A stretch of DNA of 55,140 nucleotides from a virus (IMGVR_UViG_3300009488_000001:1-55140); one strand, 5' to 3'. Shown: positions 1,508-50,678, counted from the first letter of the stretch. Translations and numbers: made by a program. Notes: a model not told the origin generated them from the letters alone.

Positions 1508-1984
1508 ATGACAGAACAACAATTTAACAACCAATTCTTCCGTAAAGGAATGAACGTAAAACTAAACAATGGCGAAATTAAGCCGATTATAGCCGTTGAT
1601 TTTGAAAATGGGGACATAGATATAGGTAATAACGTTTGGGTTCCTTATTCGAAGTGTGAGGTGTATTATGATGAACTTTTAGACTTGTTTAGAGATATCG
1701 TATGTACGTATTTCAATCTCGATATTGAGAAATTGAAAGTTAGATACAAAAAAGGCGATTACGCTCCTGCACGTACTTTAATTATGATATTAGCTATTGA
1801 TTGTAGAAAATATACTCAATTTCAAATAGCTCAATACTTAGGATTAAAGCAGCCATCTTCTATCTCGATTACAAACAGAACTTTAAGGGGGTATCATCAC
1901 ATTAAACATCATTTAAGAGAAATCAAAATTGAATACGGTCACCTAATTAAAAACATCGAAAAGTATAAATGTTTCAAAACCTGA
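1508..1984 (+). CDS. Protein with C-terminal DnaA domain IV-like helix-turn-helix
   Basis: IVCTYFNL...ARTLIMIL...TQFQIAQYLG..QPSSI resembles the DnaA C-terminal HTH. Confidence 0.55.
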   Translation: MTEQQFNNQFFRKGMNVKLNNGEIKPIIAVDFENGDIDIGNNVWVPYSKCEVYYDELLDLFRDIVCTYFNLDIEKLKVRYKKGDYAPARTLIMILAIDCRKYTQFQIAQYLGLKQPSSISITNRTLRGYHHIKHHLREIKIEYGHLIKNIEKYKCFKT

Positions 1985-2024
1985 TAAAAGTCATTGTTTT
2001 GTGTATTATTAATATTTAATTTTG
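1982..2024 (+). promoter_or_regulatory. FNR/CRP-like box plus -7 promoter element
   Basis: TGATAAAAGTCA (1982-1993), 23 bp, TAATTTTG (2017-2024). Confidence 0.7.
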
Positions 2025-2028
2025 AAAT

Positions 2029-2244
2029 ATGACAAGGACAAAAAAAATATACGGATTTCGATTAGGTGAAAATATTCCTAAATGGAAAGATAGACGCGGA
2101 AGAAATGGAGGTAAAATTATAAAATTTATTAGACTTAAACATTGTAATAAATTTCAATTACTTATTAGTAATGGAGATATTTTAACCAGCGAATATTTAT
2201 TGCAGGATGATTTTTATAGTCGCGGACTGGCAAATGAATATTAA
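2029..2244 (+). CDS. Hypothetical protein, possibly leaderless
   Basis: 71-aa ORF whose ATG sits at the predicted transcription start. Confidence 0.5.
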   Translation: MTRTKKIYGFRLGENIPKWKDRRGRNGGKIIKFIRLKHCNKFQLLISNGDILTSEYLLQDDFYSRGLANEY

Positions 2245-2246
2245 CC

Positions 2247-2289
2247 TGACAAAAGTCATATTTATTAACAAATGATATAGCGATATTTG
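2247..2289 (+). promoter_or_regulatory. FNR/CRP-like box plus -7 promoter element
   Basis: TGACAAAAGTCA (2247-2258), 23 bp, GATATTTG (2282-2289). Confidence 0.7.
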
Positions 2290-2311
2290 TATAAACTAAT
2301 AAATTGAAATT

Positions 2312-3337
2312 ATGAAAATTTACAAAAGCACAGACACAATTGAAAACTCAGCACTGATAACGTTGATTTACGGTGAGCCAGGGATAGGCAAAACCTCATT
2401 AAGCTATACGACTAACAAGCCGTTTTTATTCTCTTGCGAAGGTGGCGCAAATAGAGCCATTAGGAACGGGGATAGCGGAATGGTTGAACGGTTTGAGGAC
2501 ATATCTACCTTTTTAGATTCTGGACAATCTGACAATTACGACACTTTTGTACTCGATCCGGTAGATCATATATTAACAGTTCACGGCGCAGATTACGTGG
2601 GGCGAATGGATAAAAAAGCAGTAAGGCGTGGCGGTCAATTAACATTGCAGGGATACGGCGCATTAAAGAGCGCATTTGAGGCACTTGTAAACAAAATGCG
2701 AAGCAAAGGTAAAAACCTTGTACTGATTGCACACAGTAAGCAGATTACCAATAACGATGATACTATTAAGTATATTCCAAAGGTTACCGGGAGTAGCTAT
2801 GATATGTTAATGGAGATTTGCGATCTTGTTGGCTATATTAAAAGTGTCAACAATGAACGGACAATAGACTTTAATCCCTCGGATGAACATATAGGCAAAA
2901 ATACCGGGGAGCATAAAATATTAAAGATTCCGCACTACACGGATGATAGCTTCCAGATGTTTTTACAGGGCATTATTGACACTACCAATAACAAGATAAG
3001 CTCACTTTCAGAATTACAAAAGAAAACTATTGAGGCTATCAAAGTAGCTAAAAAAGAGGTTGACAGTATGGATTTCGAAGAGTTGCAAAAAGCAGGGTTT
3101 GACGAGTCGATATCTGTACAAATGAGCCTCTATAAAGATAAGCAGTTGGGGAATCATATTTTAGACATATTGGAGCAAAAAGAAGCGGCAGAAGATTTCA
3201 ATAATGCAATATCAAGTGTTTCTGGCTTGAAAAAACCATTTATAGGCGTATGGAGGGAAGTTCAAGAGATGGCAAAACGCAAATCCCTTACTTATGACAA
3301 GAATACTAAACAATTTAGTGATGTTATCAGTAAGTAA
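2312..3337 (+). CDS. AAA_24 / Sak4-like ssDNA-annealing ATPase
   Basis: Walker A YGEPGIGKTS, Walker B FVLDP, LVLIAHS, CDLVGY; next to an exonuclease gene. Confidence 0.8.
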   Translation: MKIYKSTDTIENSALITLIYGEPGIGKTSLSYTTNKPFLFSCEGGANRAIRNGDSGMVERFEDISTFLDSGQSDNYDTFVLDPVDHILTVHGADYVGRMDKKAVRRGGQLTLQGYGALKSAFEALVNKMRSKGKNLVLIAHSKQITNNDDTIKYIPKVTGSSYDMLMEICDLVGYIKSVNNERTIDFNPSDEHIGKNTGEHKILKIPHYTDDSFQMFLQGIIDTTNNKISSLSELQKKTIEAIKVAKKEVDSMDFEELQKAGFDESISVQMSLYKDKQLGNHILDILEQKEAAEDFNNAISSVSGLKKPFIGVWREVQEMAKRKSLTYDKNTKQFSDVISK

Positions 3338-3941
3338 AATAGAGAGTTATAGGATGTATAGGTCTCTGGATATAGATGTTGATGGGTGGGAGATATCTAT
3401 AGAAGACATTATCCAGAGACTAAGAGGACAAGATGACCATAGAACTGTCGAAGAGATAGATCGGATGCAGTTTGGGTCAGACTGTCACTATATACTTGAA
3501 ACTGGATGTATCCCTGAAGGATGGGGGGATTTATCTCCCGATGATAATAGGTCTTTTTATCTGAATGAGCTATTAAAAGATAGTGTGAACTACGATGATT
3601 GCATTAAGGAGGCCTATACAAATACGGATATATCTGGGATAACCGTTTCCCTTAAAATAGATGCCATTGATGGAATCATTGCATATGATCATAAATTCAG
3701 CGCAAAGCCACAAAAGAGAAGTAAGTTTGAGGATTCGATGCAATGGAGATTGTATTTATTGGCTACCGGACTAGACATATTTATTTATAACACATATCAT
3801 TATGGTAAGGATAGACAGAAAAGCCCGTACATAAGAAATAATAAATTTACTTTCAACTCTTATAATGGAATGAAAAATGATTGTGAATACTGGGTTTTCG
3901 AATGTGCCTCATTTATGAATTTACATGGAATAAAAACATAA
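3321..3941 (+). CDS. PD-(D/E)XK exonuclease, partner of the Sak4-like ATPase
   Basis: LSVSKI, FGSDCH, KIDAI...DHKFS, SMQWRLYL; start placed at ATG 3321. Confidence 0.7.
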   Translation: MLSVSKIESYRMYRSLDIDVDGWEISIEDIIQRLRGQDDHRTVEEIDRMQFGSDCHYILETGCIPEGWGDLSPDDNRSFYLNELLKDSVNYDDCIKEAYTNTDISGITVSLKIDAIDGIIAYDHKFSAKPQKRSKFEDSMQWRLYLLATGLDIFIYNTYHYGKDRQKSPYIRNNKFTFNSYNGMKNDCEYWVFECASFMNLHGIKT

Positions 3942-4052
3942 GGAGCAACCAAGGAAATTGATTTTTTACAGAACTTAAAAATAGCATAATTAAAATAATT
4001 ATTGTAACTTGTTAATTCATAATTAGATTTAGTTTATTAGGTAATAATTTAG

Positions 4053-4079
4053 AGGAGCCACGATGGTGGCTCCTTTTTT
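4053..4079 (+). terminator. Intrinsic terminator
   Basis: AGGAGCCAC-gatg-GTGGCTCCT followed by a T run. Confidence 0.8.
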
Positions 4080-4181
4080 GTGTTATAAAACATTTATTTG
4101 CATTTTTATGCGTTTTTATTTGGTGTTTAGCTTTTTTGTGCTTATCTTTAAATTATATTAATAATTTAAAACTTTGCAATT

Positions 4182-4490
4182 ATGAAAACTTCGACTTTCG
4201 AAAACAGAACAAAAGACATTAACAAATCAACAGTAGGGTATCAATTAGCCAAAACATTACTTTCTGGTGGCTCATATTTAAAAGGTAAGCCAATGGTAAG
4301 ACCTTGTTATACTTCTGGTCGTGGACGTTTCACGTCAAACCAAAATCATACGGTTGATACGATAATGTGTCTACAAATAGCTGGGCTAAAAAGAGATATT
4401 GATTTTAAATTAACAAACGATGCACCGAGAGGCAGCGCAACGGGCAACCTAATCACTTTAATCAATCGCAATAAAATGATAAAAAATTAA
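4182..4490 (+). CDS. Hypothetical phage protein
   Basis: 102-aa ORF after an AT-rich leader with a TATCTTTA -7-like element. Confidence 0.65.
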   Translation: MKTSTFENRTKDINKSTVGYQLAKTLLSGGSYLKGKPMVRPCYTSGRGRFTSNQNHTVDTIMCLQIAGLKRDIDFKLTNDAPRGSATGNLITLINRNKMIKN

Positions 4491-4561
4491 TCCTCCGAGT
4501 TCCTGCAAAGTCTCGCAGGATTTGCCGACCCGATACCTGCCAGAGGATCGGGTTTTGGTGG

Positions 4562-4662
4562 TATATAACATTGAGAATATGCGTTGACAGGGGAACGATT
4601 GACCCCTGAAAGTATGTGATAAACTTACAAGCCCTGTTTGCGCATATTTATTTTATAGGGCG
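4562..4662 (+). repeat. attC-like imperfect inverted repeat
   Basis: TATATAAC, arm GAATATGCGTTGACAGGG (4575-4592), arm CCCTGTTTGCGCATATTT (4632-4649), then TTTATAG (degenerate GTTRRRY). Confidence 0.45.
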
Positions 4663-4670
4663 TCTTTATC

Positions 4671-4874
4671 ATGGGAAATAACAGAATATTAACAAAACGA
4701 GAGATTAGGAACGAGTTATTTGGCATTCTATCTATGTGTGATGCTTTTTTAGAAGAAGGCAGCATGGTTGGAGGTAAACGAAAAGAAGAAATGATTAAGT
4801 ACTTGCCGAAGCAAATCGCATCACAAATAATGCAACTTCAAGACTTAATTGATGAATGTATTTTGGGTGGTTAA
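4671..4874 (+). CDS. Hypothetical protein (cassette-like)
   Basis: 67-aa ORF directly after the attC-like site. Confidence 0.55.
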   Translation: MGNNRILTKREIRNELFGILSMCDAFLEEGSMVGGKRKEEMIKYLPKQIASQIMQLQDLIDECILGG

Positions 4875-5092
4875 ATGCTCAATGATTGGTAAATAAAGCC
4901 ACCTCGCGCTGAAATAAACGTGGGGTTTTGGTAGTATGAAGCATTTACTAAAATGGAGGTCAATAAGCAAATTGCTAGCCGGTAATGCTACCTCAATAAG
5001 AAAAGAAGCAATACCTAACAAGTATCGATATAAACTAAATCGTTTATTCAGTCTTTTAGAGGCGTGGGATAAATGGCAAAAAACTGTTTGAT

Positions 5093-5350
5093 ATGGATTA
5101 TCAAAAAGAAACACCAAAAGAAATTATTGATATACTGGAAAGAGCAAAAGTAAAATATTTCGGAATAGACTATTATGCATTTCCAGAAACTTTTGCATCA
5201 ACAACAGGCCCTCATGGAGGTATTGGCGGCGCTTCAATATCAACCTTTACCGTAGAGGCTTATGTGTGTGATGGTGTTGGCCCGACAGTTTATGTGTGTG
5301 ATGGCAAATATAGGTTTACAAAAGGTAAATATAAATCACGTTGGCATTAA
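5093..5350 (+). CDS. Hypothetical phage protein
   Basis: 85-aa ORF with FPETFASTTGPHGGIGG motif, in a tightly packed operon. Confidence 0.6.
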   Translation: MDYQKETPKEIIDILERAKVKYFGIDYYAFPETFASTTGPHGGIGGASISTFTVEAYVCDGVGPTVYVCDGKYRFTKGKYKSRWH

Positions 5351-6025
5351 TTAATATGGACTTAACAAAAATAGACAATATTGAATTTGGAGAAGTTACA
5401 GAAAACGACTCCCCCGACTTCGCAGATGCTTTTATTTCAATCGCTGATTACAATGGCGAAGAAATGACAGAACCACAATTGAACGAGATAAACAAAAACA
5501 CAGAATTTGTGCATGAAAAGTTAATTGAACATTTATATTGATAATATGAAACCACAAGATTTAAAATTAGCCCAATTAAAGGCTATTCCATTAGAGGAAT
5601 ATAATAATAGTGGATGGCATAAAAAAGGAGGTACGATATGTGATATTATATATGAACGTGATTGCTACGAACCCACTTGTCATAAATGCATTTTAGATAC
5701 TCCCGATTCAGTAAAAGATCGTATTTCAGAATTAGAACAAAATAAAAATAAAAACCCATGAACTTTCACATAACCAAAATAGAATCAAACTATCTCTTCC
5801 ATACTCTTCAAATTCAGAGATTGAATAATATTGAGGAAGCTAAAAAAAGAATTGACGTTGCTCTTGATAATTGGATACATGAAGATATTATGGTTTTTGC
5901 CAGCCGCGAAGAATTAATGAGGGATGTTAAATTGGCTTATTTGATATATGCGGAGGCTGTTAGGGATTATGATTGTTAATGGCTTGGATATGGCGCATTG
6001 TCACACTAAATTAAATTGAAATATA

Positions 6026-6247
6026 ATGAATTGGATTAATAAATTATTTAGTAAAAAGAACGATAAACAGTGTAATATACACAATGTTGTACATAGCATT
6101 ACTTGCGGTGAACGTGATGAAAATGGATTTGCAGATACTTATGTGAATGGCAAAAAAACTAATGTGAAGCTATTACTTTGGAACAAAAAAGAAGTAGAAC
6201 GATTACAGAAAATAAGTGAAGAAATACACAATAAAAATAACGAGTAG
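6026..6247 (+). CDS. Hypothetical protein whose start lies inside an attC-like element
   Basis: 73-aa ORF; the element's right arm encodes QCNIHNVVHS. Confidence 0.55.
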   Translation: MNWINKLFSKKNDKQCNIHNVVHSITCGERDENGFADTYVNGKKTNVKLLLWNKKEVERLQKISEEIHNKNNE

Positions 6248-6314
6248 CATTACACACAATTAGTAAATAAACCACCATCTAAATGAGATACACCCTAAAA
6301 AATATAGTTGATAT

Positions 6315-6725
6315 ATGAAAATCTACGTTAAAAAAACAATCTCCGGTTTAGTTCCTGCATCAAGAAATGAATTTGATAAACTCCAGGATGCTAAATTAAA
6401 AATGGGTGAATTTTATGAAGTTGAAATTAAGAAAAAAAGAAACGTAAAATTTCACAGAAAGCTGTTCGCTCTTTTTAATATCTGCTTTGAGAATCAAGAA
6501 CAATTTGAAACATTGGAAGATTTAAGAGCATGGATAACTATTAAGGCCGGATATTATAAAGAAATTAAAACGCCTACCGGAGTCTTTTATATGCCAAAAT
6601 CTATTAGCTTTTCAAAGATGGATGATATAGAGTTTGAAGAGTATTATAACAAATGTATCATTGTTGTTATGAAATTTATTGGAGTTGAAAGAATGGAACT
6701 AATAGAAGAAATAAATCAATTTTGA
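6315..6725 (+). CDS. DUF1367 / NinB-like protein
   Basis: KKRNVKFHRKLFAL...R.WITIKAGY...PKSISFSKMDD.EF. Confidence 0.85.
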   Translation: MKIYVKKTISGLVPASRNEFDKLQDAKLKMGEFYEVEIKKKRNVKFHRKLFALFNICFENQEQFETLEDLRAWITIKAGYYKEIKTPTGVFYMPKSISFSKMDDIEFEEYYNKCIIVVMKFIGVERMELIEEINQF

Positions 6726-7728
6726 TATGGAAAACCTAAAGCAAATAATCATAAGAGGCATCAAAGCCCGGCGAAAACTAATCCAAAAGAAGTTATCAAA
6801 ATGTGACTTGCCAGGAATTGACCAATTAATGATTAATTTAGAATATTGCCTGAGTAAATCGGATTGTGATTATTCCGCTATGATAATTAAATTTGGTGAT
6901 GCTATTAAAAAGATGTTACCGCCAAACTTTCGCAAACGATATTTGAATGAGGTTAAACTTTTAAATTTATAGATATGGAATACGAAGTTTTTTATAATGA
7001 CGAGGTAATAGAAAGTATAGAATCCGATATAGGGATATTGATTGGAGATTTTGTGCATACAGACAGGGAAGGGTGTTTACAAATATCCAGTAGGGAATTT
7101 ATAAAACGTAAAATTACTAATGAATATAGCTGTTATGAATTTAAAATATATTGTAGATTGGTTTGTGAATAAATTTTATTTTATATATACAATGCTATAT
7201 GCTTTTAAAAATTTAGACAGACACAGTAAAATAGATGCTATATTTATGACACTGCTTGGATGTTGTTATTTATATATGTTTATTGAATTTTTAACTACAC
7301 TATAATTAACAAATAACGATTGTGAATTTTGTTTATATTTTAAATTTATAGATATGAAAACTTTTAAAACAAAATGTATAGATGTAACGGTAAGCATTAC
7401 CAATAAAGAACATTTTCTTACATTAAAACAAACGCCTGAAAACACCGGAATGTTTGGAAGCAAAATAGTGATTGAGCAATTTGAAAAATAGAAAGCGTTT
7501 TAAGCAAACGATATATTAAGCTGCCATTTAGAATTAGGATTCTTATTTAATTCTAATTAACAAAAGAACTTGAAATAAAATGAAACCAAGTAAATACAAA
7601 TGCGTCCGTTGCAATAAAATAGTAGAGCGATTAAGTAGTAATAAATGGATTAAAAGTTATTGCGAAAAGACAGGTAAAAATGTTAGACTTCAATTAATCG
7701 TAAATGAAACCTTCTAAATGTTCATATA

Positions 7729-8396: not shown

Positions 8397-8634
8397 AAAA
8401 CGAATACAGCGAATACGATTTAATTATTTACCCAGATGACCCGGACACTGTAATATTTAACAGATGAAAGACTTTTGTAAAAAACATAAACCCAGATCCA
8501 AAACAATGAGATACATTGAACATTCTAATTGGCTGGATAGGATGGATGCCCGAGGAAGTAAACAAACTCAATGCCCTAAATGTGAGCGGTGGCTGTTTCC
8601 TTGTGAAATTTAATTTGAAAATAATCCGGGAACC

Positions 8635-8677
8635 TGATAAATATCATATTTTTTATAAATTAGTAGTTGTAATTTAG
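8635..8677 (+). promoter_or_regulatory. FNR/CRP-like box plus -7 promoter element
   Basis: TGATAAATATCA (8635-8646), 23 bp, TAATTTAG (8670-8677). Confidence 0.6.
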
Positions 8678-8707
8678 TGGCATATTAATAATTAAAAATT
8701 TAGCGGT

Positions 8708-9082: not shown

Positions 9083-9755
9083 AAAAATATAAACGATATG
9101 AATATTGGGAAGCACTGGTTATCGTGCGGTTATATCAATTATTTTGTTTTCCATATTACGAATATATGTGGTGGGATAAAAGATTGAAGTTAATTATAAC
9201 AGACGAAATATAATTAATCCGCAAGTTTCCGCTAAATTCTTGCGGATAGCCGGATGCTTTACGAGGTGTCCGTCTTTGTGGGTGAAGGACATTAATAACT
9301 TAAATTTATAATTATGGTACACAAAGGACAGCGAAGAGTAAAACCAACTATATGGAATAGTAATAACCGCAAATCTACACGAGGCAGAAGGCGACAATTT
9401 ATTCTATTGAATAACGGCAAAACAATAATGATACAACATTCTGCATGATATTGCTTTATAATCACATATTAGGAGTTATTGGATATATTGTCTCAATATT
9501 TACACTAGATACTACAAGGAAGGCAGTATTTGAAACTCCAAAAAAGATCCATATTTTCGGGGACAACCTTAAATATTGGATGCAGTATGATGATTATGAA
9601 TACATGCTGCCGGAAGCGGCTGCATAATACGCTTTGGATTCTAAAAAAATAAAAACATCCAAAGGAACCGTATAAGAAAACCCCACACTGAGATAAATGT
9701 GGGGTTTGTGGGTGAAAGATTGTTGGGAATGGGGTTTAATTAGATGTTTTGATAT

Positions 9756-10448
9756 ATGGAAAAAGGTTTTATAACAAATCAAACCTTATTTGGGAAGCCT
9801 GAAATAATAGGTTTTGGATCGTCAGATTTTTATGTACAAGAGGTAGGTCGCAATTTTGCGAATGAAACTATTGTAAAGAATCATTATAGTAATAAAGTGT
9901 ATAATGGCACGTATATACATTTGGGCATTTATATTAAATCTGAATTGTTAGGAATATTACAATATGGATATGCTATGAATCCGTCGAGTTGTGACAGTGT
10001 AGTAAAGGGGACGGAGCAGGATCAATATCTTGAATTAAATAGAATGTGGCTTGATGATAAGGCAGCGCGCAATAGTGAAAGTAAGGCAATAAGTTATTCA
10101 ATTAAATATATAAAGGGTAAATTGCCACGAATAAAATGGATACAGTCATTTGCAGATGAAAGGTGTGGTTTTTTTGGAATTGTTTACCAAGCCTGCAGTT
10201 TTAATTTTTATGGTGAACATGAATCTGTGTTTTGGGAGCTTGAGGGTGAAATTTTCCATAATTCAATAAAAACTAGCAGAAAGGCGGGTAAAAGAGGATA
10301 TGATTTATTAAACAATCCCATAAATAAAGATAAAATTAAAAGTGAGAAACTCCGCCAATTTAGATATATTAAATTTATTGATTCCCGATGGAAAAAGAAA
10401 TGTTTATTAAAAGAAAAACCATATTTAAAATATTATAATGGTGATTAA
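9756..10448 (+). CDS. mom: Mom-family adenine modification protein (GNAT-like fold)
   Basis: IVKNHYS, LELNRMW, RNSES.AIS, SFADERCG..GIVYQAC.F motifs like Mu Mom homologues. Confidence 0.8.
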   Translation: MEKGFITNQTLFGKPEIIGFGSSDFYVQEVGRNFANETIVKNHYSNKVYNGTYIHLGIYIKSELLGILQYGYAMNPSSCDSVVKGTEQDQYLELNRMWLDDKAARNSESKAISYSIKYIKGKLPRIKWIQSFADERCGFFGIVYQACSFNFYGEHESVFWELEGEIFHNSIKTSRKAGKRGYDLLNNPINKDKIKSEKLRQFRYIKFIDSRWKKKCLLKEKPYLKYYNGD

Positions 10449-10487
10449 TGCATAACTCAAACCACGGTCTACCATTAAAAACATAAG

Positions 10488-11087
10488 ATGAAAAACAGAA
10501 ATATAAAACATTCAGATCATTGGCTAACTCCCAGGATATTTTTCGACAAGTTAAATGAAAAATACAATTTCAATCTCGATCCATGTCCTGCTTATCATGA
10601 TATTAGAGAATGGGACGGATTAAAAATTGACTGGGATAGCCGTAATTTTATCAATCCTCCATATTCACAGAAATCAAAAGAGGCATTTGTAATTAAAGCC
10701 ATACACGAAAGTAAAAAAGGTAAATTATGTGTGATGCTTTTACCTGTAAGCACTTCGACTAAATTGTTTCATGAAATCATCCTGCCAGAGAAGCCAAAAG
10801 TAAAATTCATAAAAGGCAGATTGCCATTTATCGGACAAAATGAAAAGGGGCAAATTGTTAATAGCGAAAAGCCAACACAGGAATTAATAGAATGGACGGA
10901 TGAAGAGGGAGAAATTACGCTGATTTCCAAACATGTTAAGAACTCGGGACAACACGATTCTATGCTAGTTGTGTTCGATGGTCGCAGCGCCTCAGATAAG
11001 GCAAAATTTCTTATAGATAGATTTATAAAAAGAGATGTAAGGGGCTGGATTGTGGCTATTCAAAATAAGCAGGGTAAATTATTTTAA
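10488..11087 (+). CDS. Phage DNA N6-adenine methyltransferase (Dam family)
   Basis: W.TP, FNLDPC, DGL..DW, catalytic NPPY, VMLLP, GRL.F. Confidence 0.88.
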   Translation: MKNRNIKHSDHWLTPRIFFDKLNEKYNFNLDPCPAYHDIREWDGLKIDWDSRNFINPPYSQKSKEAFVIKAIHESKKGKLCVMLLPVSTSTKLFHEIILPEKPKVKFIKGRLPFIGQNEKGQIVNSEKPTQELIEWTDEEGEITLISKHVKNSGQHDSMLVVFDGRSASDKAKFLIDRFIKRDVRGWIVAIQNKQGKLF

Positions 11088-11266
11088 GATGAAAAGCAAA
11101 CTACATAACGATATCGAGCGGTGCAGATTCAATATTGCATTAAGCAAAAGAGAAGAAAGACAAGCAGACATGTTTATGGTCAGATTGTGGAATAATCCTG
11201 AAGATATGAAAATAGTCTTTTGGGTTAATATGATGGTTTGTAATCGGGGGAATTAAATTTATAGCT

Positions 11267-11866
11267 ATGAAAATATTAGTCGGATTCGAAGAAAGCCAAG
11301 CGATAACAATTGAGTTAAGAAAATTAGGTCACGAGGCTTTTAGTTGCGATTTAAAAGAATGCTCCGGAGGGTATCCGGAGTGGCATTTTAAAGACGATAT
11401 TTATAATGTGATTGGTATGGGTTGGGATATTATAATAATGCATCCACCTTGTACTGCGATAGCCGTTTCAGGTAATGGCACATATGCTAAAGGTAAAGCA
11501 AAACACCATTTAAGGCTAGCCGCTATTAAATGGACTCAAAAATTATGGCATGACTGCACAGAAGTGTGTAGTAAAGTTTGTCTTGAAAATCCACAAGGAG
11601 TACTTGCGACAAATACAGATTTGCCAAAACCTCAGTATATACAACCGTGGCAATTTGGGCATACAGAAACTAAAAAAACAGCTTTATTTTTATATGGGCT
11701 ACCGCCACTTAAAGAGACTAACAATGTGAAAATAGAAATGGATAAATTACCTGATAAAGATAAGCATAAAATATGGTATGCTTCTCCAGGGAATGACAGA
11801 TCAGAGTTAAGGTCAAAAACCTATATTGGAATTGCAAAAGCAATAGCAGAACAATGGACTAAATAA
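11267..11866 (+). CDS. Short C5-cytosine methyltransferase-like protein
   Basis: LVGFEESQ, HPPCT catalytic motif, ENP, IQPWQFGH..TKKT, RSKTY.GIA.A.A.QW. Confidence 0.82.
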   Translation: MKILVGFEESQAITIELRKLGHEAFSCDLKECSGGYPEWHFKDDIYNVIGMGWDIIIMHPPCTAIAVSGNGTYAKGKAKHHLRLAAIKWTQKLWHDCTEVCSKVCLENPQGVLATNTDLPKPQYIQPWQFGHTETKKTALFLYGLPPLKETNNVKIEMDKLPDKDKHKIWYASPGNDRSELRSKTYIGIAKAIAEQWTK

Positions 11867-11883
11867 TATTGTAATGTGTAATT

Positions 11884-11924
11884 AAAAGCGGTTAATATGC
11901 GTATAGTGTATTAACTGCTTTTTT
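11884..11924. terminator. Bidirectional terminator between convergent arms
   Basis: AAAAGCGGTTAATATGC...GTATTAACTGCTTTTTT between convergent genes. Confidence 0.75.
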
Positions 11925-13416: not shown

Positions 13417-13466
13417 ACCACAAAGATAGTCAATGATTAGTTTAAATGCAAATTACATATACATAC

Positions 13467-15428: not shown

Positions 15429-15617
15429 AATTAATAAGGTATTGGTTTGTAATATTCATCTTCACTTAATGTATCCACGCACGTATTACATGCATTTAGA
15501 TTGTTTTCGACCTGATATCGGCATAAACTACATACATCTATTACATCGGCGCTATTTCTGATTATTTCTCCATACTTATTCTTTGCCATAACTTCATTAT
15601 TTTAATTAAACATACCC

Positions 15618-15691
15618 CAAAGTTCAGAATAATCTTTTTACGGAACTATGATAAAAGTCATGTTTTGGTAGTTTTTATTGTTGTAGGTTTG
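15618..15691. promoter_or_regulatory. Divergent promoter pair sharing one FNR/CRP-like box
   Basis: TGATAAAAGTCA (15649-15660); TAGGTTTG (+, 15684-15691) and GAACTTTG (-, 15625-15618), each 23 bp from the box. Confidence 0.72.
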
Positions 15692-15718
15692 AAGTATAAA
15701 TGAATTAAATTATATATT

Positions 15719-16086: not shown

Positions 16087-16129
16087 TGGCAAAAGTCATT
16101 GTTTTCAATCAAAATTAGAATTAACTTAG
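16087..16129 (+). promoter_or_regulatory. FNR/CRP-like box plus -7 variant
   Basis: TGGCAAAAGTCA (16087-16098), 23 bp, TAACTTAG (16122-16129). Confidence 0.5.
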
Positions 16130-16236
16130 TACTTTAAAATTAGGATAATCTACAAAATCACAACGGAGTTAAGAGACTCAGCAAAAGAAGGGAGTTATTA
16201 TGAAATAGCTATTAAGTAAAATGTAAAAACTTTTCG

Positions 16237-16269
16237 AAAAAAGCCCGGTCTAACACTGCCGGGCTTTTC
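16237..16269. terminator. Bidirectional terminator
   Basis: AAAAAAGCCCGG...CCGGGCTTTT. Confidence 0.8.
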
Positions 16270-16506
16270 TATTTATATATTATTAAATTGGAGTTACAAA
16301 TACTATCCCTCGATCCTTTACCCCTTGTTCAAATTCTTCTTTTGATATTTCGCCCCTTATTCCTTTGTGTATGAATACTTGATTATCCGCTATCCTTTTA
16401 CATGTCTTTGCGTCTAACATTGCGTATCAAATTTATTAATTTTTTTGTGACCCACTCAATCAGCATAATTACTAATAATATAGGTATGATTACAATTTGC
16501 ATATTT

Positions 16507-38583: not shown

Positions 38584-38595
38584 TGACAAATATCA
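38584..38595. promoter_or_regulatory. FNR/CRP-like box upstream of the portal gene (non-standard spacing)
   Basis: TGACAAATATCA; nearby TATATTTG (-) elements at 38566 and 38551 are not at the 23-bp spacing. Confidence 0.45.
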
Positions 38596-38686
38596 TTGTT
38601 TTTATGAATTATTTTTTGATAGAATATTGGAGTGCATAAAAACCCGACTATTTTAGAGCCGGGCCTGTTGGAATGATTTGTTTAAA

Positions 38687-43158: not shown

Positions 43159-43774
43159 GATTTTTAATTAATTCAGTCATCCAATTTTTATGAAACGTGT
43201 ATGTTTGCTTATTGTTTTCATATAAATACTGTTCAATCCTTGCGTTATCACTCATGTTTCCCGATCCTTCAAATACATAATACCCCCTGTTTGTTTTTAC
43301 TGCCAATACTTTAGCGTGGTTATGAGCGTATATATGAGAGGTATTTTTATTACTATCTGCAAAATCTTTTAACATTATAGCCCATTCTTCAGGTTTTTTA
43401 GTTTGATTAAAAAATGATGAAATTACAAAATGAGCTTTTTTGATCCTTCCTGTGATTATGAGATCAATTAGGCTAGTTACAGTTGGCTTATTAATTCTAT
43501 AAACAGCCAAATATAAGTCCTCAATTATTTCTGTTTCTAATAAATGCAGGATTAATGCGTATGCATTGAATTGCTTTTCTGTAATTATCCGATATTGCTC
43601 GTTGGGCAACGGCTTAATACATAAGTCCGATAACTTTTTGGCTTTTAATAGATGGACTTCATTGTTTTTTATTATGCGCTTTTCTGCTTTCGATTTGACC
43701 AAAGTTTCATCCATCCATATCTCTTCTTTATCGTCCAAATCGCTAATACTTATATTTTGATCCCATCCATCCAT
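43139..43774 (-). CDS. PLD-family (single HxK) nuclease-like protein
   Basis: HNHAKVLAV...EGSGNMSDNARIEQY. Confidence 0.7.
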   Translation of the reverse strand: MDGWDQNISISDLDDKEEIWMDETLVKSKAEKRIIKNNEVHLLKAKKLSDLCIKPLPNEQYRIITEKQFNAYALILHLLETEIIEDLYLAVYRINKPTVTSLIDLIITGRIKKAHFVISSFFNQTKKPEEWAIMLKDFADSNKNTSHIYAHNHAKVLAVKTNRGYYVFEGSGNMSDNARIEQYLYENNKQTYTFHKNWMTELIKNHGSSTV

Positions 43775-43790
43775 ATTTCAAAGATACGCA

Positions 43791-43824
43791 AAAAAGCCGG
43801 ATAACGCAATTAAGGTTATCCGGC
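43791..43824 (-). terminator. Intrinsic terminator
   Basis: Minus strand GCCGGATAAC...GTTATCCGGC-TTTTTT. Confidence 0.8.
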
Positions 43825-43856
43825 ATAATATCACAGAATCACGACAAACTGCAATA

Positions 43857-44288: not shown

Positions 44289-45470
44289 TGTCGTGATTTT
44301 TAATTTATCTCCTTTATTGTAATATAAAGATACAACTATTTTTTGGACATTGCACTATGATTCACGGAATAAAGGCTGTTTTTTACGATATTATTCCGTG
44401 CTCCCTTCAATATCCTTTGAACTATATTTTATTCCGTTAATTGTTATCGGCATTTTAGATTCTATTTTTTCTAATCTTAATATCGTTTCGCCATATTTCC
44501 TATTTATTAAACACTCTAATAGCGTATCTCCAGGAACTTTGTAATATTCTCCATTGATACAAATAGCATCACTCAATAAGGCGTTTAGCATTGTTTTTTT
44601 ATCTAATCTGACAGAACATTCAAGTACGATTTTTGTTTCTTGTAATTCTATATTATCTGTTAAATCCATTATCTACTTTATTAACTTCGTAAACATAGCC
44701 TTTGGCAACCCTATCTCTTGACCATCTACGGATATTTTTATAAATATTGTGTCTTTATCTTCTCTCGTGCTTAATATCTCATGCGATTGTTCGCCGAGCT
44801 GAGCTATGATAGTGGCCAAGTCTCCTTCCTCTATTTCTTCGCCTGTATTAAATTTGGCCTTGTCTATCCTTAATCCGGTAATTCTCGGAAATGAGGCTTG
44901 GCATTCTGTTGGTTTATGTTTTATATTACAACACATATCTACTTTATTGATTCGTAAGCCTTAACTAATATATCGAAATCGGTTTTTATTCTTTTGCCAT
45001 ATAAATAAAAGCATTAAATTCTCAACTTTGTTAATTTTATCAGCATTATCTAGGCAATGGAATGGTATCCCGTTTTTTAATGCCAATTCCTCCAATACTT
45101 ATCTGAATGATTTTCCTTTGGGTTCGGCTAATTCTTTTTTTAACCATTCCGGTAAACTATCAGCGGCTTTAGCTAATTCAATGTTTGCATTTCTGGCTTT
45201 TGTTGTGTAGTATTCAAATTTTTGTAATGCCTTGCAAACTTTACCTAAATCTGCTATTACTTTGGAGTCTATTATTTCTTTGACTGGTTCCATATCAATT
45301 CATTTTAAACAATTCCATTTTAATGCAAGAAAAATAAAACACATCAGGACACAAATTCTTTATCAAATGTCTTTTGATATCCCATTCGTTAAACTCCTTC
45401 ATCTCTACATCTAACCATGAAGGGGATATGTCTAATATTGATTCTACTCTTTGCATAATTTAAAATTAAA

Positions 45471-45592
45471 TGCAGGGAGGTACTTTCTTCGCTCCCTGCG
45501 TAGCTTTTAGGCTACCATTTTTAAGTTGTTGTTTACTTTTACCTTAGCTCTCTATTATCCCAATTATCATCTGTCGATCCCAATTCAGCCCC
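45471..45592 (-). ncRNA. ssrA: Two-piece tmRNA, coding piece
   Basis: Starts GGGGCTGAATTGGGATCGAC; tag frame (A)VNNNLKMVA* at 45536-45507 with the stop in a GTAGC/GCTAC hairpin loop; terminal GCAGGGAG/CTCCCTGC hairpin. Confidence 0.85.
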
Positions 45593-45625
45593 ATTTATTT
45601 GACTTGCAGGGACGGCGATCGTTAA

Positions 45626-46129
45626 TCACTCCGCCCCCACTAATGTTTTCAATATCCTTCCACATGATATATCCCTGACGTATTGGTATGGCACGTTAAG
45701 ATCTATTGACACCTGTTTTAATGTCCTCGATTCTCTATTAAATACAGCGGCTTTAACCTCAATTGCTTTGGTCTTGGGAATTTTGGTATTTAATGGGTAA
45801 TGATTTATTTCAAACCCCCTACCTTTAGGTATAATTAATCTGCCCTTATTAAAAGCATCCTTCATATTATCAGAATGACTTCCTATAAATAAATGATCTG
45901 GATTTACACATTTAGGATTATCACATTTGTGACAAACATATAATCCCTCTGGCATGTCTCCATTGTAAATCATCCAAGATAGTCGGTGAGCACCAAGTGA
46001 TTTACCTTCAACTTTAATTATACCATATCCCGTCCTGAGACCTGCTTGCCATTCCCAGCATCCTGTTTTTTGTTTTTTAATCTTAGAAAGGAATCTACCC
46101 TTAACTTTCTCGTCTATCATATAATTCAT
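45626..46129 (-). mobile_element. Free-standing HNH homing endonuclease gene between the tmRNA pieces
   Basis: CWEW, GYG, AHRLSW, VCHKCDNPKCVNPDHL..G...DN..D, C-terminal HTH-like segment. Confidence 0.9.
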
Positions 46130-46173
46130 TTTGTGTAAATATATGAACCTTTTTTACAAAAGCAAGTATTTTC

Positions 46174-46237
46174 GGGAGCTAGCGGGAGTCGAACCCGCGT
46201 CCAAACAATATCGCAAATAATTTCAACGAACTAAAAT
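46174..46237 (-). ncRNA. ssrA: Two-piece tmRNA, acceptor piece
   Basis: ...GGAC-GCGGG-TTCGACT-CCCGC-TAGCTCC pairs with GGGGCTG of the coding piece, including G3:U70. Confidence 0.85.
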
Positions 46238-46239
46238 AG

Positions 46240-46313
46240 AGCCTAATAAGGGATTCGAACCCCTGCCCCGATCATTACAAGTGAGCTGCTCTAACCAACT
46301 GAGCTAATCAGGC
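46240..46313 (-). tRNA. tRNA-Thr(TGT), CCA not encoded
   Basis: GCCTGAT TA GCTC AGTTGGTTA GAGC A GCTCA CTTGTAA TGATC ... AGGGG TTCGAAT CCCTT ATTAGGC T; one anticodon-stem mismatch. Confidence 0.9.
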
Positions 46314-46611
46314 TGTTTTGATTTATAAAGATAATCAATTAATACTAAATTATGAAATTGACAAAATCTGACCATCTGCCAGGATGGGATAAAATGCTGC
46401 TTTCTTTACGTGGCACAGCAACCTTTATTTTATCTCTCCACCAAGCACGCCACTGGCAATGGCTAAAATAGATATTTGTAAAAATGCAAATCAAATGATA
46501 ATCATACGTACTCAAATCATTATTTTTACACCTTCCAAAAATAGGAGTAGCCTGTTTTATCGGTTCGCTCCGCTATTTTTGTTCAGTTTCGACCAGATTA
46601 TATTTAAAGAA

Positions 46612-46724
46612 TAGAGAGGGTAGGATTTGATACCTACAACAAGTTCCTGCGATCGTAGCCAACTTAGAGCCTAGCCTGCATTTAGGCAGCTTCCAACAGG
46701 TATGTGTATTTCCACCACCCCTCT
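46612..46724 (-). ncRNA. tRNA-like RNA with an expanded, branched anticodon region
   Basis: Acceptor AGAGGGG/CCTCTCT, D-like GTGGAAATACAC, T-arm GTAGG-TATCAAAT-CCTAC; about 65-nt central domain. Confidence 0.55.
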
Positions 46725-46749
46725 ATTCTATATTTTCAAAGAACTAATT

Positions 46750-46792
46750 CAAAGATAAGGACTAACAACACACAAAACAATGACTTTTGTCA
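46750..46792 (-). promoter_or_regulatory. FNR/CRP-like box plus -7 promoter driving the RNA locus
   Basis: Minus strand TGACAAAAGTCA (46792-46781), 23 bp, TATCTTTG (46757-46750). Confidence 0.75.
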
Positions 46793-46813
46793 TGTTTTGA
46801 AAAATATTTCAAA

Positions 46814-47221
46814 TTAATGTAATCTGAAATTAAACCCAACTGTATATGATAGTTTAGATGTTGAATTATACATAACTCCCAAACTAATCACCTTTACTCT
46901 AATCGCTGCTAACACCCCTAATTGCAGCCCTCTTTTGTTATATCTGGACTTCCCGTAACCCAACATCGGAACAATTGAAATACAGTCCTTAAACTGCTTT
47001 CCTACCATGTAATAACCACACCATCCTAGCTCTTCGTCTTTTGTATTTTCTCCAGTTATTCCAACTATGAGATTGTTTGTGCTGCCATATATTATTACGG
47101 TGCTTGTTTCTAGCCTTGGGGTATATTGGGTTATTACTGATACTCTATCTTTTGATTGAGATATTAGGGCGAAGAGTAATAGGATGAAGAGTAATATGGT
47201 GATTGTTAGTAGTGTTTTCAT
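46814..47221 (-). CDS. Secreted, probable small outer-membrane beta-barrel protein
   Basis: Signal peptide ending ALIS|Q; alternating amphipathic strands; C-terminal YTVGFNF. Confidence 0.55.
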   Translation of the reverse strand: MKTLLTITILLFILLLFALISQSKDRVSVITQYTPRLETSTVIIYGSTNNLIVGITGENTKDEELGWCGYYMVGKQFKDCISIVPMLGYGKSRYNKRGLQLGVLAAIRVKVISLGVMYNSTSKLSYTVGFNFRLH

Positions 47222-47423
47222 AAGTTAATTTTTTAATTCTTTTATTAGCTCAATTTGGGCTAATTGAACAATGTTGTTATATTTTATCAATGCCTCTTTT
47301 TGGTATGGATACATACTATCTGACGAGTCCCTACTCTTATCTTTAAGTATTGTCCATTGCAAACAATTAAGTAACCTATTACTTAATCTCACAATTCTAT
47401 ACAACCTTCTATTATTTTTCATG

Positions 47424-47837
47424 TTAATTTATTTTATATTTAGTTTTTAGCCAAGTTATGAATCCTTTGAATGTAGGCTCAGTGTGTATCCACTCTTCTT
47501 TTATGCGACAAACAGCATCAGTCCATGTTGGTTGTGTTAAATCTATGCTGCCATTTACAGCTTTTATACGCAGTACTGAATTATCAAATGACTTGACAAA
47601 AATACTATCATTATAACACTCCTGCTCATAGACTAAAAACAATCCCAAAGGCACACTTTCCCCCATCTTCCATTCGTCCTTTTCTTTTGTATTTTCCGGA
47701 GTTGCATCTATGATTATATATTCAGGATTAAGAGCGAGCGCAAACTGAATATTACTTGAATCAATATTTAATGGCTCCATTGTTTGCCCCATCACTCCCA
47801 ACGAGCAAATTAATAATAGTATTGTTGTTTTTTTCAT
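47424..47837 (-). CDS. Secreted hypothetical protein
   Basis: MKKTTILLLICSLGVMG|Q. Confidence 0.6.
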   Translation of the reverse strand: MKKTTILLLICSLGVMGQTMEPLNIDSSNIQFALALNPEYIIIDATPENTKEKDEWKMGESVPLGLFLVYEQECYNDSIFVKSFDNSVLRIKAVNGSIDLTQPTWTDAVCRIKEEWIHTEPTFKGFITWLKTKYKIN

Positions 47838-48018
47838 TTTGATTCAGTTTTAGGATTAATTGATTTCAGCCATTGTATCACCTCGTTTATATCAGACATA
47901 TGACTTCTTAGTGCTGTATAATATTCGGTGCTTCTGCCTTTTTTACTTTGGTATTCCTCCAATAAATCAGAATGCTTATTTTGCCACTTGGCTATTTGCT
48001 TATCTCTTTTCATTTCTA

Positions 48019-48417
48019 TTAACTTTTAAGTGAATTAATATCAATTATTTCGCCTGTTTTAAATAGGGACTGATCGTATATCCAATAGTGGTTTTTCACT
48101 AATACCTTGACAGCATTGTATGAAATGGCTCCTACTATAGTTCCACATCCACCAAAACCTCCTAAAAACAATTCATTATTAATTATTTCCAGTTCATAAT
48201 CTGATAGCTCGTCTCTTATTTCTTGGTCTGCATTTTCTCCGAACAATTTAATTAGTGGGCGAAAGGCTAATTTTGACTTAGTTATATTATTAACAAATGA
48301 CATGATATTATTTGTTGTTAAATATTTACGCATTGGTCTCCCCTTAAATACTCTTAGTGTGTTATATGAAGTCAAACTATAAGGCAAATATATTGCCAGT
48401 TGTTCAAGTGTTGTCAT
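48019..48417 (-). CDS. Hypothetical phage protein
   Basis: L..YLPY.L...K...RPL...L.KNH...IDIN.L pattern. Confidence 0.65.
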   Translation of the reverse strand: MTTLEQLAIYLPYSLTSYNTLRVFKGRPMRKYLTTNNIMSFVNNITKSKLAFRPLIKLFGENADQEIRDELSDYELEIINNELFLGGFGGCGTIVGAISYNAVKVLVKNHYWIYDQSLFKTGEIIDINSLKS

Positions 48418-48933
48418 ATCTCAATATTTTTAATAATTAGTTCTCCGTTTGTTGCTTCTGTATTTGACTGAATGTTTCCTATATCGCTGCCTGATTGTAC
48501 CGATATTATTTTTTAAATAGATTCTCGCAGCTAGGTTTAAAACTTCATCTTCAGTATCCCCATAATAAAATAGCTCACTGTACGCATCTTCACTATATCC
48601 CATGCCCATTCCAGCTACAACTCCATTTGTTTTCGTGACTGAATGAATTGATATTTGACTTCTTCCTCTCTGCCTTAATTTTTTTAAAAGTTTTACTTTC
48701 ATCTCTTTTATTGTTATATACCTTTAGGATAGAGAGGTTAAATATTCTTATTGTAAGCTATATTTCTACGCTTAACAAGGTTTTTCATGTATCTTTTTTT
48801 CTCATCCTTATTCAAGTTGACGAGTAGATCAATATCAATATCCAAGGATTTATGAAATTCATCTTTTCTAATATATGATTTATACCAGGAATGACGTATT
48901 TTTGCAATTAATTTATTCATAATCTTCTATATT

Positions 48934-49905
48934 TTACTTATATTTCTCTATATCCCAGTAAAAGCCGTTTTTAATCTCTGCTTTTACTAGTTTTTTGATT
49001 TGCTTTTTGGAGGCGGTCTTAATATATTTTATGGTTTCATCATTGCATATGTAGCGATCGCTATCATTGTAACCATACCAACATCCACTTTTTTTTGCAA
49101 GCGATGAATTAGATGATGTTTTGTATATCCCACCAGTGTATCTATATATCCAAAACAGACCACCGGTACTTTCCATTTCATATACATCTCCCTTAATCAA
49201 TTCAACTTTCTCTTCCCTTCTCTCCCTCTCTTCTTTTACCCAGTCCTTCGCAGATTTAGGAGTTAAAAAGTACTTGAAGTTTTTTTCATTGTACTCTTTA
49301 ATAATCGTTTCCGAGTGAATTTCGAGGTTACTTAACTCTACCGGGATGCACTTATCCCCCTCACAAATATCCACCCCATCTTCAATCTTAAATAGTGGGG
49401 TTAGTTTTTCTGCCCATTTGCCGTTCCAGTTTACCATCCATCCGCCAATACATATGTCTCCATGTTCGTTATATGCCGCATTGCCGTTTCTTATGGTGCG
49501 GATGCTTCCACGGCTCATTCCATTAATTCTCGTCCCCGCTGGATATTCCCTCTCCGCTTTCGCTAATCGGAATTTATTGTATTTATCCTGTAAATTTTGT
49601 TGTTTTAGATATTCTTGGAATTGGAGGATTTGAAACCCTCTGCTCTCATAGAAAACACGATCTGTATACCCTGATATTTTATCACAGTTGAAATAATATC
49701 CTTTTATGTAACCCCACGTAGCACCAAACAAATCTTTTATAAAATCAAATTCATCCTCACTATTGGGTGAAACGGCCTGTTTAACTTCTTTTTTAGGCTC
49801 TTCCAATGTGTTAATAAATATCTCTGTCGATTTCTTTAAACAAGATGCAAATTCCTCTAAATGCTCCTGTATTTCGTTTCGATAATCTTCGATAATCTTT
49901 TCCAT
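48934..49905 (-). CDS. Hypothetical multidomain protein
   Basis: 323 aa; A.REYP.GT, NGKWAE, PLF..EDGVDI.EGD modules. Confidence 0.7.
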   Translation of the reverse strand: MEKIIEDYRNEIQEHLEEFASCLKKSTEIFINTLEEPKKEVKQAVSPNSEDEFDFIKDLFGATWGYIKGYYFNCDKISGYTDRVFYESRGFQILQFQEYLKQQNLQDKYNKFRLAKAEREYPAGTRINGMSRGSIRTIRNGNAAYNEHGDICIGGWMVNWNGKWAEKLTPLFKIEDGVDICEGDKCIPVELSNLEIHSETIIKEYNEKNFKYFLTPKSAKDWVKEERERREEKVELIKGDVYEMESTGGLFWIYRYTGGIYKTSSNSSLAKKSGCWYGYNDSDRYICNDETIKYIKTASKKQIKKLVKAEIKNGFYWDIEKYK

Positions 49906-50169
49906 AACTAATTTAAGTTTACCATTAATTCCAATTCAACAATAAATTCATCAGGTTCTAATTCCTGGGATTTTTCAAACAATTTATCAAAGTCTGATTC
50001 TTTATTTTTAGGCTTGTAATCTTGTACTAAGTTAATGAATGTCAAGAAGATAAGCAAGCCAATTGTATAAAATAACGCTTTGGTTTTTAGCCAGATTATT
50101 AAGGCATGACCAAATATTTTGATGTAATCTTTTGCCGGAATAGCCATGTTTTAGTTTTAGTTTGAATTG

Positions 50170-50243
50170 TAAAGGTCGGAACTATTTTTTTATTAAAACA
50201 TGATAAAAGTCATAGTTTGTGAATTTTTTTATTGTGACCTTTG
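50170..50243. promoter_or_regulatory. Main divergent promoter pair sharing one FNR/CRP-like box
   Basis: TGATAAAAGTCA (50201-50212); GACCTTTG (+, 50236-50243) and GACCTTTA (-, 50177-50170), each 23 bp away; at the genome's main strand switch. Confidence 0.75.
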
Positions 50244-50300
50244 CTTTATTGAACGGTTTGGGTATGGTTTGATTTTTAACGAATAAATAACTAAAACATT

Positions 50301-50594
50301 ATGAGTTATCCAGTATTATTATTAAATGAGCAAATTGATTTACTCGCAGAAGAAATGAGATTTGCTGAAGGAGAAGAATACCAAGACACCCAGAGGAGAT
50401 TGGATGAATGTGCAGCCGCAGTTAAAAAATTAACTATACCTGATGCTAGGAAGCGTTATTTGATTGAAAAAAATAACGGCGAATTATGTTGCCCAAAGTG
50501 CAATATAATATGTGCACTAACGTACAGTGAAGATGATAAACATGGCGACATTATGCATTGTAATACCTGTGGCGAGGATTATGAGATACCTTAA
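50301..50594 (+). CDS. Hypothetical zinc-ribbon protein spanning an attC-like junction
   Basis: C-terminal CPKC...CNTC; inverted repeats inside and after the gene. Confidence 0.65.
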   Translation: MSYPVLLLNEQIDLLAEEMRFAEGEEYQDTQRRLDECAAAVKKLTIPDARKRYLIEKNNGELCCPKCNIICALTYSEDDKHGDIMHCNTCGEDYEIP

Positions 50595-50635
50595 TGCTTC
50601 CTAACATAGAAATAAAAACACCTTTTACTATTATA

Positions 50636-50678
50636 TGATAAAAATCATATTTATCTAATTATTTTATCCCGACCTTTG
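50636..50678 (+). promoter_or_regulatory. FNR/CRP-like box plus -7 promoter element
   Basis: TGATAAAAATCA (50636-50647), 23 bp, GACCTTTG (50671-50678). Confidence 0.72.

Follow-up and report, generated by a model that had tools for sequence, protein, structure and literature searches.

An FNR-type box at predicted class II spacing in ten putative promoters of a phage genome matches a low-oxygen regulon motif of Flavobacteriaceae

The early promoters of phages are usually assumed to be constitutive, strong and of host type. The middle promoters of phage T4 carry a MotA box and are used together with AsiA, the activator and the co-activator both being encoded by the phage. In rhizobia, FixK/FnrN 'anaeroboxes' are found at the fixNOQP-fixGHIS (cbb3 oxidase) operons. 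The FNR box of E. coli is TTGATNNNNATCAA, and in the model class II promoter FF-41.5 the box is centred at -41.5 (PMC4505428, consulted in part). Here we report on IMGVR_UViG_3300009488_000001:1-55140, a complete virus record that is 55,140 bp long and terminally repeated (bases 1–123 recur at 55018–55140; this whole stretch of analysed DNA is the window in what follows), in which a related box lies at a fixed distance from the core elements of ten putative promoters. We put the probability at roughly 80% that these boxes bind a dimer of the host's CRP/FNR family acting as a class II activator, which would place the early programme of the phage under a low-oxygen signal of its host.

An earlier sequence-only reading of the window had listed nine boxes of the form TGAY-N4-RTCA, and all nine are present where it placed them. 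This loose pattern has 8 matches in the phage vs 4.39 expected, with 8 or more in 5 of 100 shuffles (not significant alone). Beyond the loose pattern, the spacer (AAAW) and the T that follows are also conserved, and the box in the phage takes the form [A/C]TGAY-AAAW-RTCAT, an inverted repeat with TGA-N6-TCA half-sites that occurs eight times exactly and once with one mismatch (TGGC, at 16087). In 9/9 sites the flanks are [A/C] 5' of TGA and T 3' of TCA. The refined pattern TGAYAAAWRTCAT has eight exact sites in the phage vs 0.04 expected, a number equalled in 0 of 100 shuffles, and none when the pattern is read backwards as a control; it was refined after the sites had been seen and was afterwards confirmed on independent DNA (see below). 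The A-run of the spacer is on the sense strand in all six unidirectional sites. No additional convincing box promoter was found by a relaxed scan of the phage genome.

To describe the spacing, we scanned both sides of the nine boxes (18 oriented sides) at offsets 8 to 40 for elements resembling the Bacteroidota -7 element (pattern [TG]AnnTT[TA][GA], background frequency 0.0058 per position). Such an element lies at an offset of exactly 23 nucleotides (nt) on 10 of the 18 sides (1982, 2247, 8635, 16087 and 50636 on the plus side, 46781 on the minus side, and 15649 and 50201 on both), with at most one at any other offset in the range scanned, so the exact distance claimed by the sequence-only reading holds. 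The two boxes with an element on each side form putative divergent promoter pairs, as that reading had also noted, and the gene layout bears out its view of 50201 as the main strand switch. Among the ten promoters, three have the strict TAnnTTTG, five GAnnTTT[GA] and two TAnnTTAG; by this comparison with the consensus, the phage -7 elements are mostly off-consensus, i.e. weak cores, as expected of activator-dependent promoters.

In Flavobacterium psychrophilum the primary-sigma element TAnnTTTG is located at -12 to -5 (PMC9723704, consulted in part). With a 23-nt gap, the 12-nt box would therefore occupy -47 to -36, with its centre at -41.5 relative to the predicted starts (taken as box end + 36 nt; all starts given here are predictions), which agrees with the class II position proposed earlier and is the same position as in FF-41.5 (PMC4505428). 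The phage box thus resembles that of E. coli in being an inverted repeat with a TGA-N6-TCA core, an A/T-rich 4-nt centre and a predicted centre at -41.5. It differs in that the outer T/A is absent and the full consensus TTGAT-N4-ATCAA is not reached (a Bacteroidota variant rather than the enterobacterial consensus), in that the core is of the Bacteroidota -7 TAnnTTTG type, and in that the sites are in a phage genome.

Independent DNA was provided by one genome per prokaryotic species, which we scanned for the exact composite (box, T, 22 nt, TAnnTTTG). At least 123 loci were found; among the 80 titles listed, 79 belong to Bacteroidota or Ignavibacteria, with Flavobacteriaceae in the majority, and the other is an archaeal metagenome-assembled genome (MAG). 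A downstream open reading frame (ORF; ATG-started, at least 50 amino acids (aa), within 300 nt) is present for 114 of the 123 listed sites, and by Pfam these 114 ORFs include FixS/CcoS (29), Usp (8), radical SAM proteins of HemN size (5), pyruvate:ferredoxin oxidoreductase (5), cytochrome c (4), phosphotransacetylase (Pta; 2) and Cu-oxidase with cytochrome c (NirK-like; 2), two each of Thioredoxin_9, CBS, Rrf2, ornithine/aspartate carbamoyltransferase and metallo-beta-lactamase fold, and one each of GluTR, cytochrome c assembly, ApbE, FixI-type N-terminus, ferredoxin, PAS and a Crp-family gene, the remaining ORFs having unrelated families or no Pfam match. Judged by these annotations, the genes behind the bacterial boxes are the set expected for an FNR/FixK-type low-oxygen regulon, and the suggestion that the box might precede anaerobic or respiratory genes in candidate hosts is borne out (FixS, Usp, HemN-like, pyruvate:ferredoxin oxidoreductase, NirK-like and cytochrome c genes). 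As with FNR in E. coli, this putative regulon contains genes for a high-affinity oxidase, haem synthesis, fermentation and denitrification. In F. psychrophilum, genes of the cbb3 oxidase and of haem synthesis are induced by oxygen limitation (PMC9723704). The literature that we searched holds no account of this regulator or its site in Bacteroidota, of an FNR site in Flavobacteriia, of FNR boxes in flavobacterial phages, or of a phage whose promoters are nearly all of the present type; the consulted part of PMC8510549 has a prediction of MalR-like CRP/FNR homologs for a Flavobacteriales MAG and no mention of the present box, and that of PMC7599459 mentions FNR only as a host metabolic regulator.

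The general composite (TGAY-N4-RTCA-N23-TAnnTTTG) gave 32 sites in five Flavobacteriaceae genomes vs 2 for the backward control, and the spacer of these 32 sites is AAAA or AAAT in 15, on the sense strand as in the phage, and ATTT in 3. When gaps of 13–33 nt were allowed in 41 Flavobacteriaceae genomes, 100 sites were found in 32 genomes vs 6 for the control, the gap being 23 nt in 77 of them, 22 in 7, 24 in 8 and of other lengths in the remaining 8. Both in its geometry and in the orientation of its spacer, the phage therefore follows what is commonest in host genomes.

These host sites also bear on whether a transcription factor is needed at all, because the box could be an intrinsic element (an extended -33 or UP-like element) that host polymerase reads by itself. 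The box does abut the -33 region, and both the T-rich stretch 3' of it and the sense-strand A-run are orientation-dependent, as such an element would be. An element of strong promoters would, however, be expected at ribosomal-protein genes, a family absent from the 114 downstream ORFs of the listed sites, whereas the box is concentrated at low-oxygen genes in host genomes; moreover, two palindromes each serve promoters in both directions, and none of nine cultured flavobacterial phages carries the box (see below). We consider this explanation very improbable.

If a factor binds the boxes, it is not a recognisable CRP/FNR protein of the phage: Pfam finds none, and a profile of host regulators has a best E-value of 0.96 over 843 six-frame segments, in agreement with the statement of the sequence-only reading that no such gene is visible. 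An early phage protein of another kind could still have come by FNR-like specificity by chance and activate or repress through the boxes. No function is assigned to most phage ORFs, and weak helix-turn-helix (HTH) matches are seen at 1508–1981 (DnaA_C-like, E-value 1e-5, below the cut-off) and 52087–52236 (HTH_17/Cox-like), but no homologs of these HTH candidates were found in the other multi-box viral contigs. The box is already there at the promoters that would be used first (50201, both directions), before any phage protein could have been made, and the identical box and spacing are found in hundreds of bacterial promoters. A phage-encoded binder thus receives little credence from us. In T4, too, promoters throughout the phage form a class with a conserved box that stands in for the normal -35 at a constant distance upstream of the core, but the phage genome here has no evident activator of the MotA type (neither a CRP/FNR-like protein nor another candidate shared with other box-bearing phages was found), and its box is a host regulon motif.

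We also looked for the composite in other viruses. A scan of viral contigs gave at least 118 loci, with 107 unique contexts among the matches listed. Of these contexts, 41 were set aside because they are a conserved protein-coding gene that matches the composite by homology, leaving 66. This coding gene occurs in many viral contigs (loci L009, L012–L014, L016, L018 and others) and is a trap for motif scans. Five viral records contain 2–5 exact 13-mers each vs 0 for the control, with the same site layout as in the phage, and one contig of 123 kb has five sites within a single 6-kb stretch. The only proteins common to the multi-box contigs and the phage are YopX, the small terminase subunit, an HNH protein, a 169-aa protein of unknown function and weak portal matches; sharing almost no proteins with the phage, these contigs point to a host factor rather than to a shared phage factor. 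The box with an AAAW spacer was absent from all nine cultured flavobacterial phages searched (Danklef_1, Freya_10, FpV9, Calle_1, Ingeline_2, Nekkels_2, Colly_1, Molly_3 and Gundel_1), so none of these nine offers a cultured model for the box. A BLAST search of a 61-nt promoter against cultured phages returned noise only (E-values 0.1–5, unrelated taxa), the approach being unsuitable. With 0/9 cultured phages carrying it and the box-bearing contigs unrelated, the box is neither a general element of flavobacterial phages nor tied to a shared phage protein; by these comparisons it is a host regulon motif that some phages have acquired independently.

Candidates for the host factor were sought near the bacterial boxes. 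In 5/5 Flavobacteriaceae genomes, the best HTH_Crp_2 gene is 3–6 kb from the ccoS box, and in Flavobacterium covae the order is the regulator (minus strand), the FixI-type ATPase gene, the box, and then ccoS and ccoN (plus strand). At this F. covae locus (L261), the FixI-type ATPase gene (2589–4972) is divided among three overlapping or adjacent frames, which could be due to frameshifts or a sequencing problem. The regulators encoded by these genes are FNR-like, i.e. about 228 aa long, starting with MSKCEQC, with conserved cysteines and a helix TATES(A/C)IRLLS, and their best NCBIfam match is the Fnr subfamily (E-values 1e-25 to 5e-29, below the curated cut-off). Like E. coli FNR they have N-terminal cysteines and keep the Glu and Arg of the recognition helix (E-x3-R), and they differ from it in having Ile in place of Ser-212 (numbering as in PMC4505428), which would fit a box that lacks the outer T/A of the consensus in E. 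coli. The arrangement is also reminiscent of FixK/FnrN in rhizobia in that a CRP/FNR-family gene adjoins genes of the cbb3 oxidase and its maturation with the box ahead of them, although the phylum and the promoter type are different and the rhizobial system involves no phage. The binder is most likely the cysteine-bearing FNR-like regulator encoded beside the ccoS/ccoN genes in Flavobacteriaceae. The earlier proposal of a host CRP/FNR-family activator gains from all three lines, since the box with its 23-nt gap precedes low-oxygen genes, the FNR-like gene is near the ccoS box in each of the five genomes, and the phage has none.

Orthologs of this regulator (at least 40% identity) were found in 31 of the 41 Flavobacteriaceae genomes, at most 5 kb from a box in 15 of the 31. 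Co-occurrence shows a weak association (a box in 26/31 genomes with the ortholog vs 6/10 without), and only the gene neighbourhood is informative on the link between ortholog and box. Six of the 41 genomes have boxes and no ortholog at this identity (one of them has six boxes), and another five have the ortholog and no exact box. These exceptions leave it unsettled which member of the CRP/FNR family is the binder: the family is well supported, which does not extend to the exact member and its signal. Another host protein of the family may be the binder, e.g. a Crp-like protein of about 360 aa that responds to a phosphorelay, nitrogen oxides or some other signal in place of oxygen. The six genomes with boxes alone would suit it, and Crp-like frames of 351–385 aa, 30–33% identical to the FNR-like regulator, do exist. 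In the region C2:162830–165372 of genome G044 such a frame (164752–165309; 367 aa, 33% identical over residues 36–223) is flanked by composite boxes at 162830 and 165330, and similar frames are seen in eight other genomes; this type may be a second regulator that uses the same box. We nevertheless regard it as rather unlikely that such a protein, and not the FNR-like one, is what the phage relies on, since it is the short FNR-like gene that is syntenic with the ccoS box (5/5 genomes, and 15/31 in the larger set) and the regulated genes are the classic oxygen-limitation set.

With a host FNR-type activator centred at -41.5, the bound protein would contact RNA polymerase, and because the phage -7 elements are mostly off-consensus, the box promoters should fire well only when it is bound. 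The low-oxygen signal would then control the divergent early pairs (50201 and 15649), replication (50636), recombination (2247), DNA modification (8635), a small RNA without an ORF (16087) and the tRNA unit (46781). Outside box control would be the late packaging and structural operon, with a box-less promoter of its own.

The ninth box (38584–38595, TGACAAATATCA) is an orphan. It precedes the portal gene and comes just after a hairpin and T-run on the minus strand (~38636–38664), and, as the sequence-only reading had pointed out, its spacing is different: no -7 element lies at 23 nt, and minus-strand TATATTTG is found at offsets 17 and 32. This box may be a repressing or otherwise non-class-II site. 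At offset 17 it overlaps a candidate promoter's -33 region, as one would want if host FNR represses phage promoters in low-oxygen cells. Alternatively, the sites might chiefly serve to titrate the host regulator, since a protein in short supply could be sequestered by the roughly ten high-affinity sites that each replicating genome presents. The other boxes, however, have the same geometry as those at host genes induced by oxygen limitation, and weak -7 elements fit activation, so we think repression or titration is highly improbable.

Several points count against activation by a host FNR-type protein. The orphan box is not at class II spacing. The loose pattern carries no significance by itself and the refined one was chosen post hoc, after the sites had been seen. 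The spacer A-run is always on the sense strand, which a symmetric dimer does not explain, and the 6 and 5 of 41 genomes described above break the pairing of ortholog and box. The compared genomes are those of Flavobacteriaceae, as stand-ins for a probably flavobacterium-like host, and for the phage promoters the starts, expression and binding are predictions. A conditional activator would be a risky design for a phage that looks virulent, and the case for gating would be weaker if the regulator already has some activity during ordinary growth, as it may.

The genome is new in presenting a Bacteroidota phage whose recognisable early and middle promoters nearly all belong, by their predicted architecture, to an activator-dependent box type: almost every one combines a weak core with a predicted docking site for a conditional host activator. 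Host physiology might thereby gate phage development, and the prediction is that the outcome of infection depends on the oxygen status of the host. A stronger version is that the phage, together with scattered unrelated uncultured flavobacterial phages, is hypoxia-gated, the whole early programme starting only when the host's FNR-type sensor is active and host oxygen status taking the place of a repressor; we offer this tentatively, and would sooner bet against it than on it. If it were true, infection would proceed, e.g., inside particles, biofilms, sediments or dense blooms, and aerobic plaque isolation would systematically miss such phages, which would fit the 0/9 among cultured flavobacterial phages; it would also have consequences for phage-host dynamics wherever marine or freshwater niches are poor in oxygen, and for the question of why certain groups of phages resist cultivation. 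In either case, the box, the 23-nt gap and the -7 element together are a signature for finding such phages in metagenomes, and the ten natural promoter variants are a compact set for studying FNR-type activation in Bacteroidota.

The individual promoters are as follows. On the plus strand, the 1982 promoter (1982–2029) has the box TGATAAAAGTCA at 1982–1993, the -7 element TAATTTTG at 2017–2024 and a predicted start at 2029, the first base of a 71-aa ORF. The 2247 promoter (2247–2294; box TGACAAAAGTCA, -7 element GATATTTG at 2282–2289, predicted start 2294) precedes the Sak4-like recombination module (2312–3334), and its unit goes on to NinB/Orf and RusA. The 8635 promoter (8635–8682; box TGATAAATATCA, -7 element TAATTTAG at 8670–8677, predicted start 8682) precedes the DNA modification unit with the Mom-like and two DNA methyltransferase genes. 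The 50636 promoter (50636–50683; box TGATAAAAATCA, -7 element GACCTTTG at 50671–50678) has its predicted start at 50683, where a 177-aa ORF begins, with the replication module (helicase loader, DnaB) downstream.

Two single boxes serve both strands. At the main strand switch (50165–50248; box 50201–50212), the plus side has GACCTTTG at 50236–50243 and a predicted start at 50248, and the minus side has GACCTTTA at 50177–50170 and a predicted start at 50165. The other pair (15613–15696; box 15649–15660) belongs to a small divergent unit, with TAGGTTTG at 15684–15691 and a predicted start at 15696 on the plus side, and GAACTTTG at 15625–15618 and a predicted start at 15613 on the minus side.

The promoter with the one-mismatch box (16087–16268, plus strand; box TGGCAAAAGTCA, -7 element TAACTTAG at 16122–16129, predicted start 16134) is predicted to make a transcript of about 135 nt without an ORF (16134–16270), which ends at a strong bidirectional terminator with an 11-bp stem (16239–16268). 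This transcript is a candidate phage small RNA; it has no Rfam match at the gathering threshold.

On the minus strand, the 46781 promoter (46745–46792; box TGACAAAAGTCA, -7 element TATCTTTG at 46757–46750, predicted start 46745) is followed by a leader of about 230 nt, a 56-aa ORF, tRNA-Thr (46239–46313) and the HNH endonuclease gene. The leader (46520–46745) has a 12-bp closing stem, GAAUAGAGGGG...CCCUCUCUAUUC, and its part 46540–46745 folds no better than shuffles (z -1.08). Neither ARAGORN nor Rfam at the gathering threshold finds a transfer-messenger RNA (tmRNA) in this unit, only tRNA-Thr. A permuted tmRNA candidate (E-value 0.051, at the edge of a short stretch) was rejected, as it was gone when the searched stretch was lengthened.

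The box promoters appear to have spread as duplicated cassettes: over 61 nt, 1969–2029 shares 82% identity with 46745–46805 on the opposite strand, and the bidirectional regions 15619–15676 and 50171–50228 are 74% identical.

Outside the box set, the promoter of the packaging and structural operon (43772–43824, minus strand) has a box-less TATCTTTG at 43786–43779 and, at 43774, a leaderless ATG. Ahead of this element stands a 10-bp hairpin with a T-run (43824–43790); the hairpin at 43796–43824 is beyond the loop limit of the terminator scan and was read directly from the sequence. Further box-less TATCTTTG elements are at 13428, 20833 and 52045. The terminator and sigma-70 scans were at chance level except for the terminator at 16239–16268. 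Since this late operon has a box-less promoter behind a terminator, not everything in the two genome arms depends on the box. The sequence-only reading had both arms, the recombination genes and a tRNA/tmRNA locus under box control; the arms at 50201, recombination (2247) and tRNA-Thr (46781) stand as predictions, and the packaging and structural operon and the tmRNA drop out.

Three predicted starts coincide with the A of an ATG (2029, 50683 and, on the minus strand, 43774), and three leaderless mRNAs are thus predicted. Leaderless mRNAs are only 5.5% of the mRNAs of F. psychrophilum (PMC9723704).

As to the rest of the genome, genes on the plus strand extend from 50.3 kb over the genome ends as far as 11.9 kb, and the DnaB helicase gene spans these ends; the guanine-cytosine content is about 33%. 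Their products include the helicase loader, DnaB, YopX, the Sak4-like annealing protein, NinB/Orf, RusA, the Mom-like protein and two DNA methyltransferases. The minus-strand genes run from 50.1 kb down to 16.5 kb and comprise small ORFs, tRNA-Thr, the HNH endonuclease, the small and large terminase subunits, portal, capsid and tail genes. No integrase or sigma factor was found among the proteins encoded by the 55,140-bp phage genome. Judged by the large terminase, the nearest named relatives are the Polaribacter phages Danklef and Freya (43% identity). A megablast search of 6 kb of the phage against cultured phages gave no match, and a search for viral-contig loci with the Sak4-like protein alone found no relative of the phage.

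At 9756–11863, the Mom-like DNA modification gene (E-value 3e-65) is followed by a Dam-type methyltransferase gene and then a second DNA methyltransferase gene, in a single box-driven unit. An A/T-rich context, TTAAATTTATAGATATGAAAA, is repeated at gene starts (6944–6987, 7323–7366, 9283–9326 and 11253–11273) and is probably a favoured context for translation start without a Shine-Dalgarno sequence.

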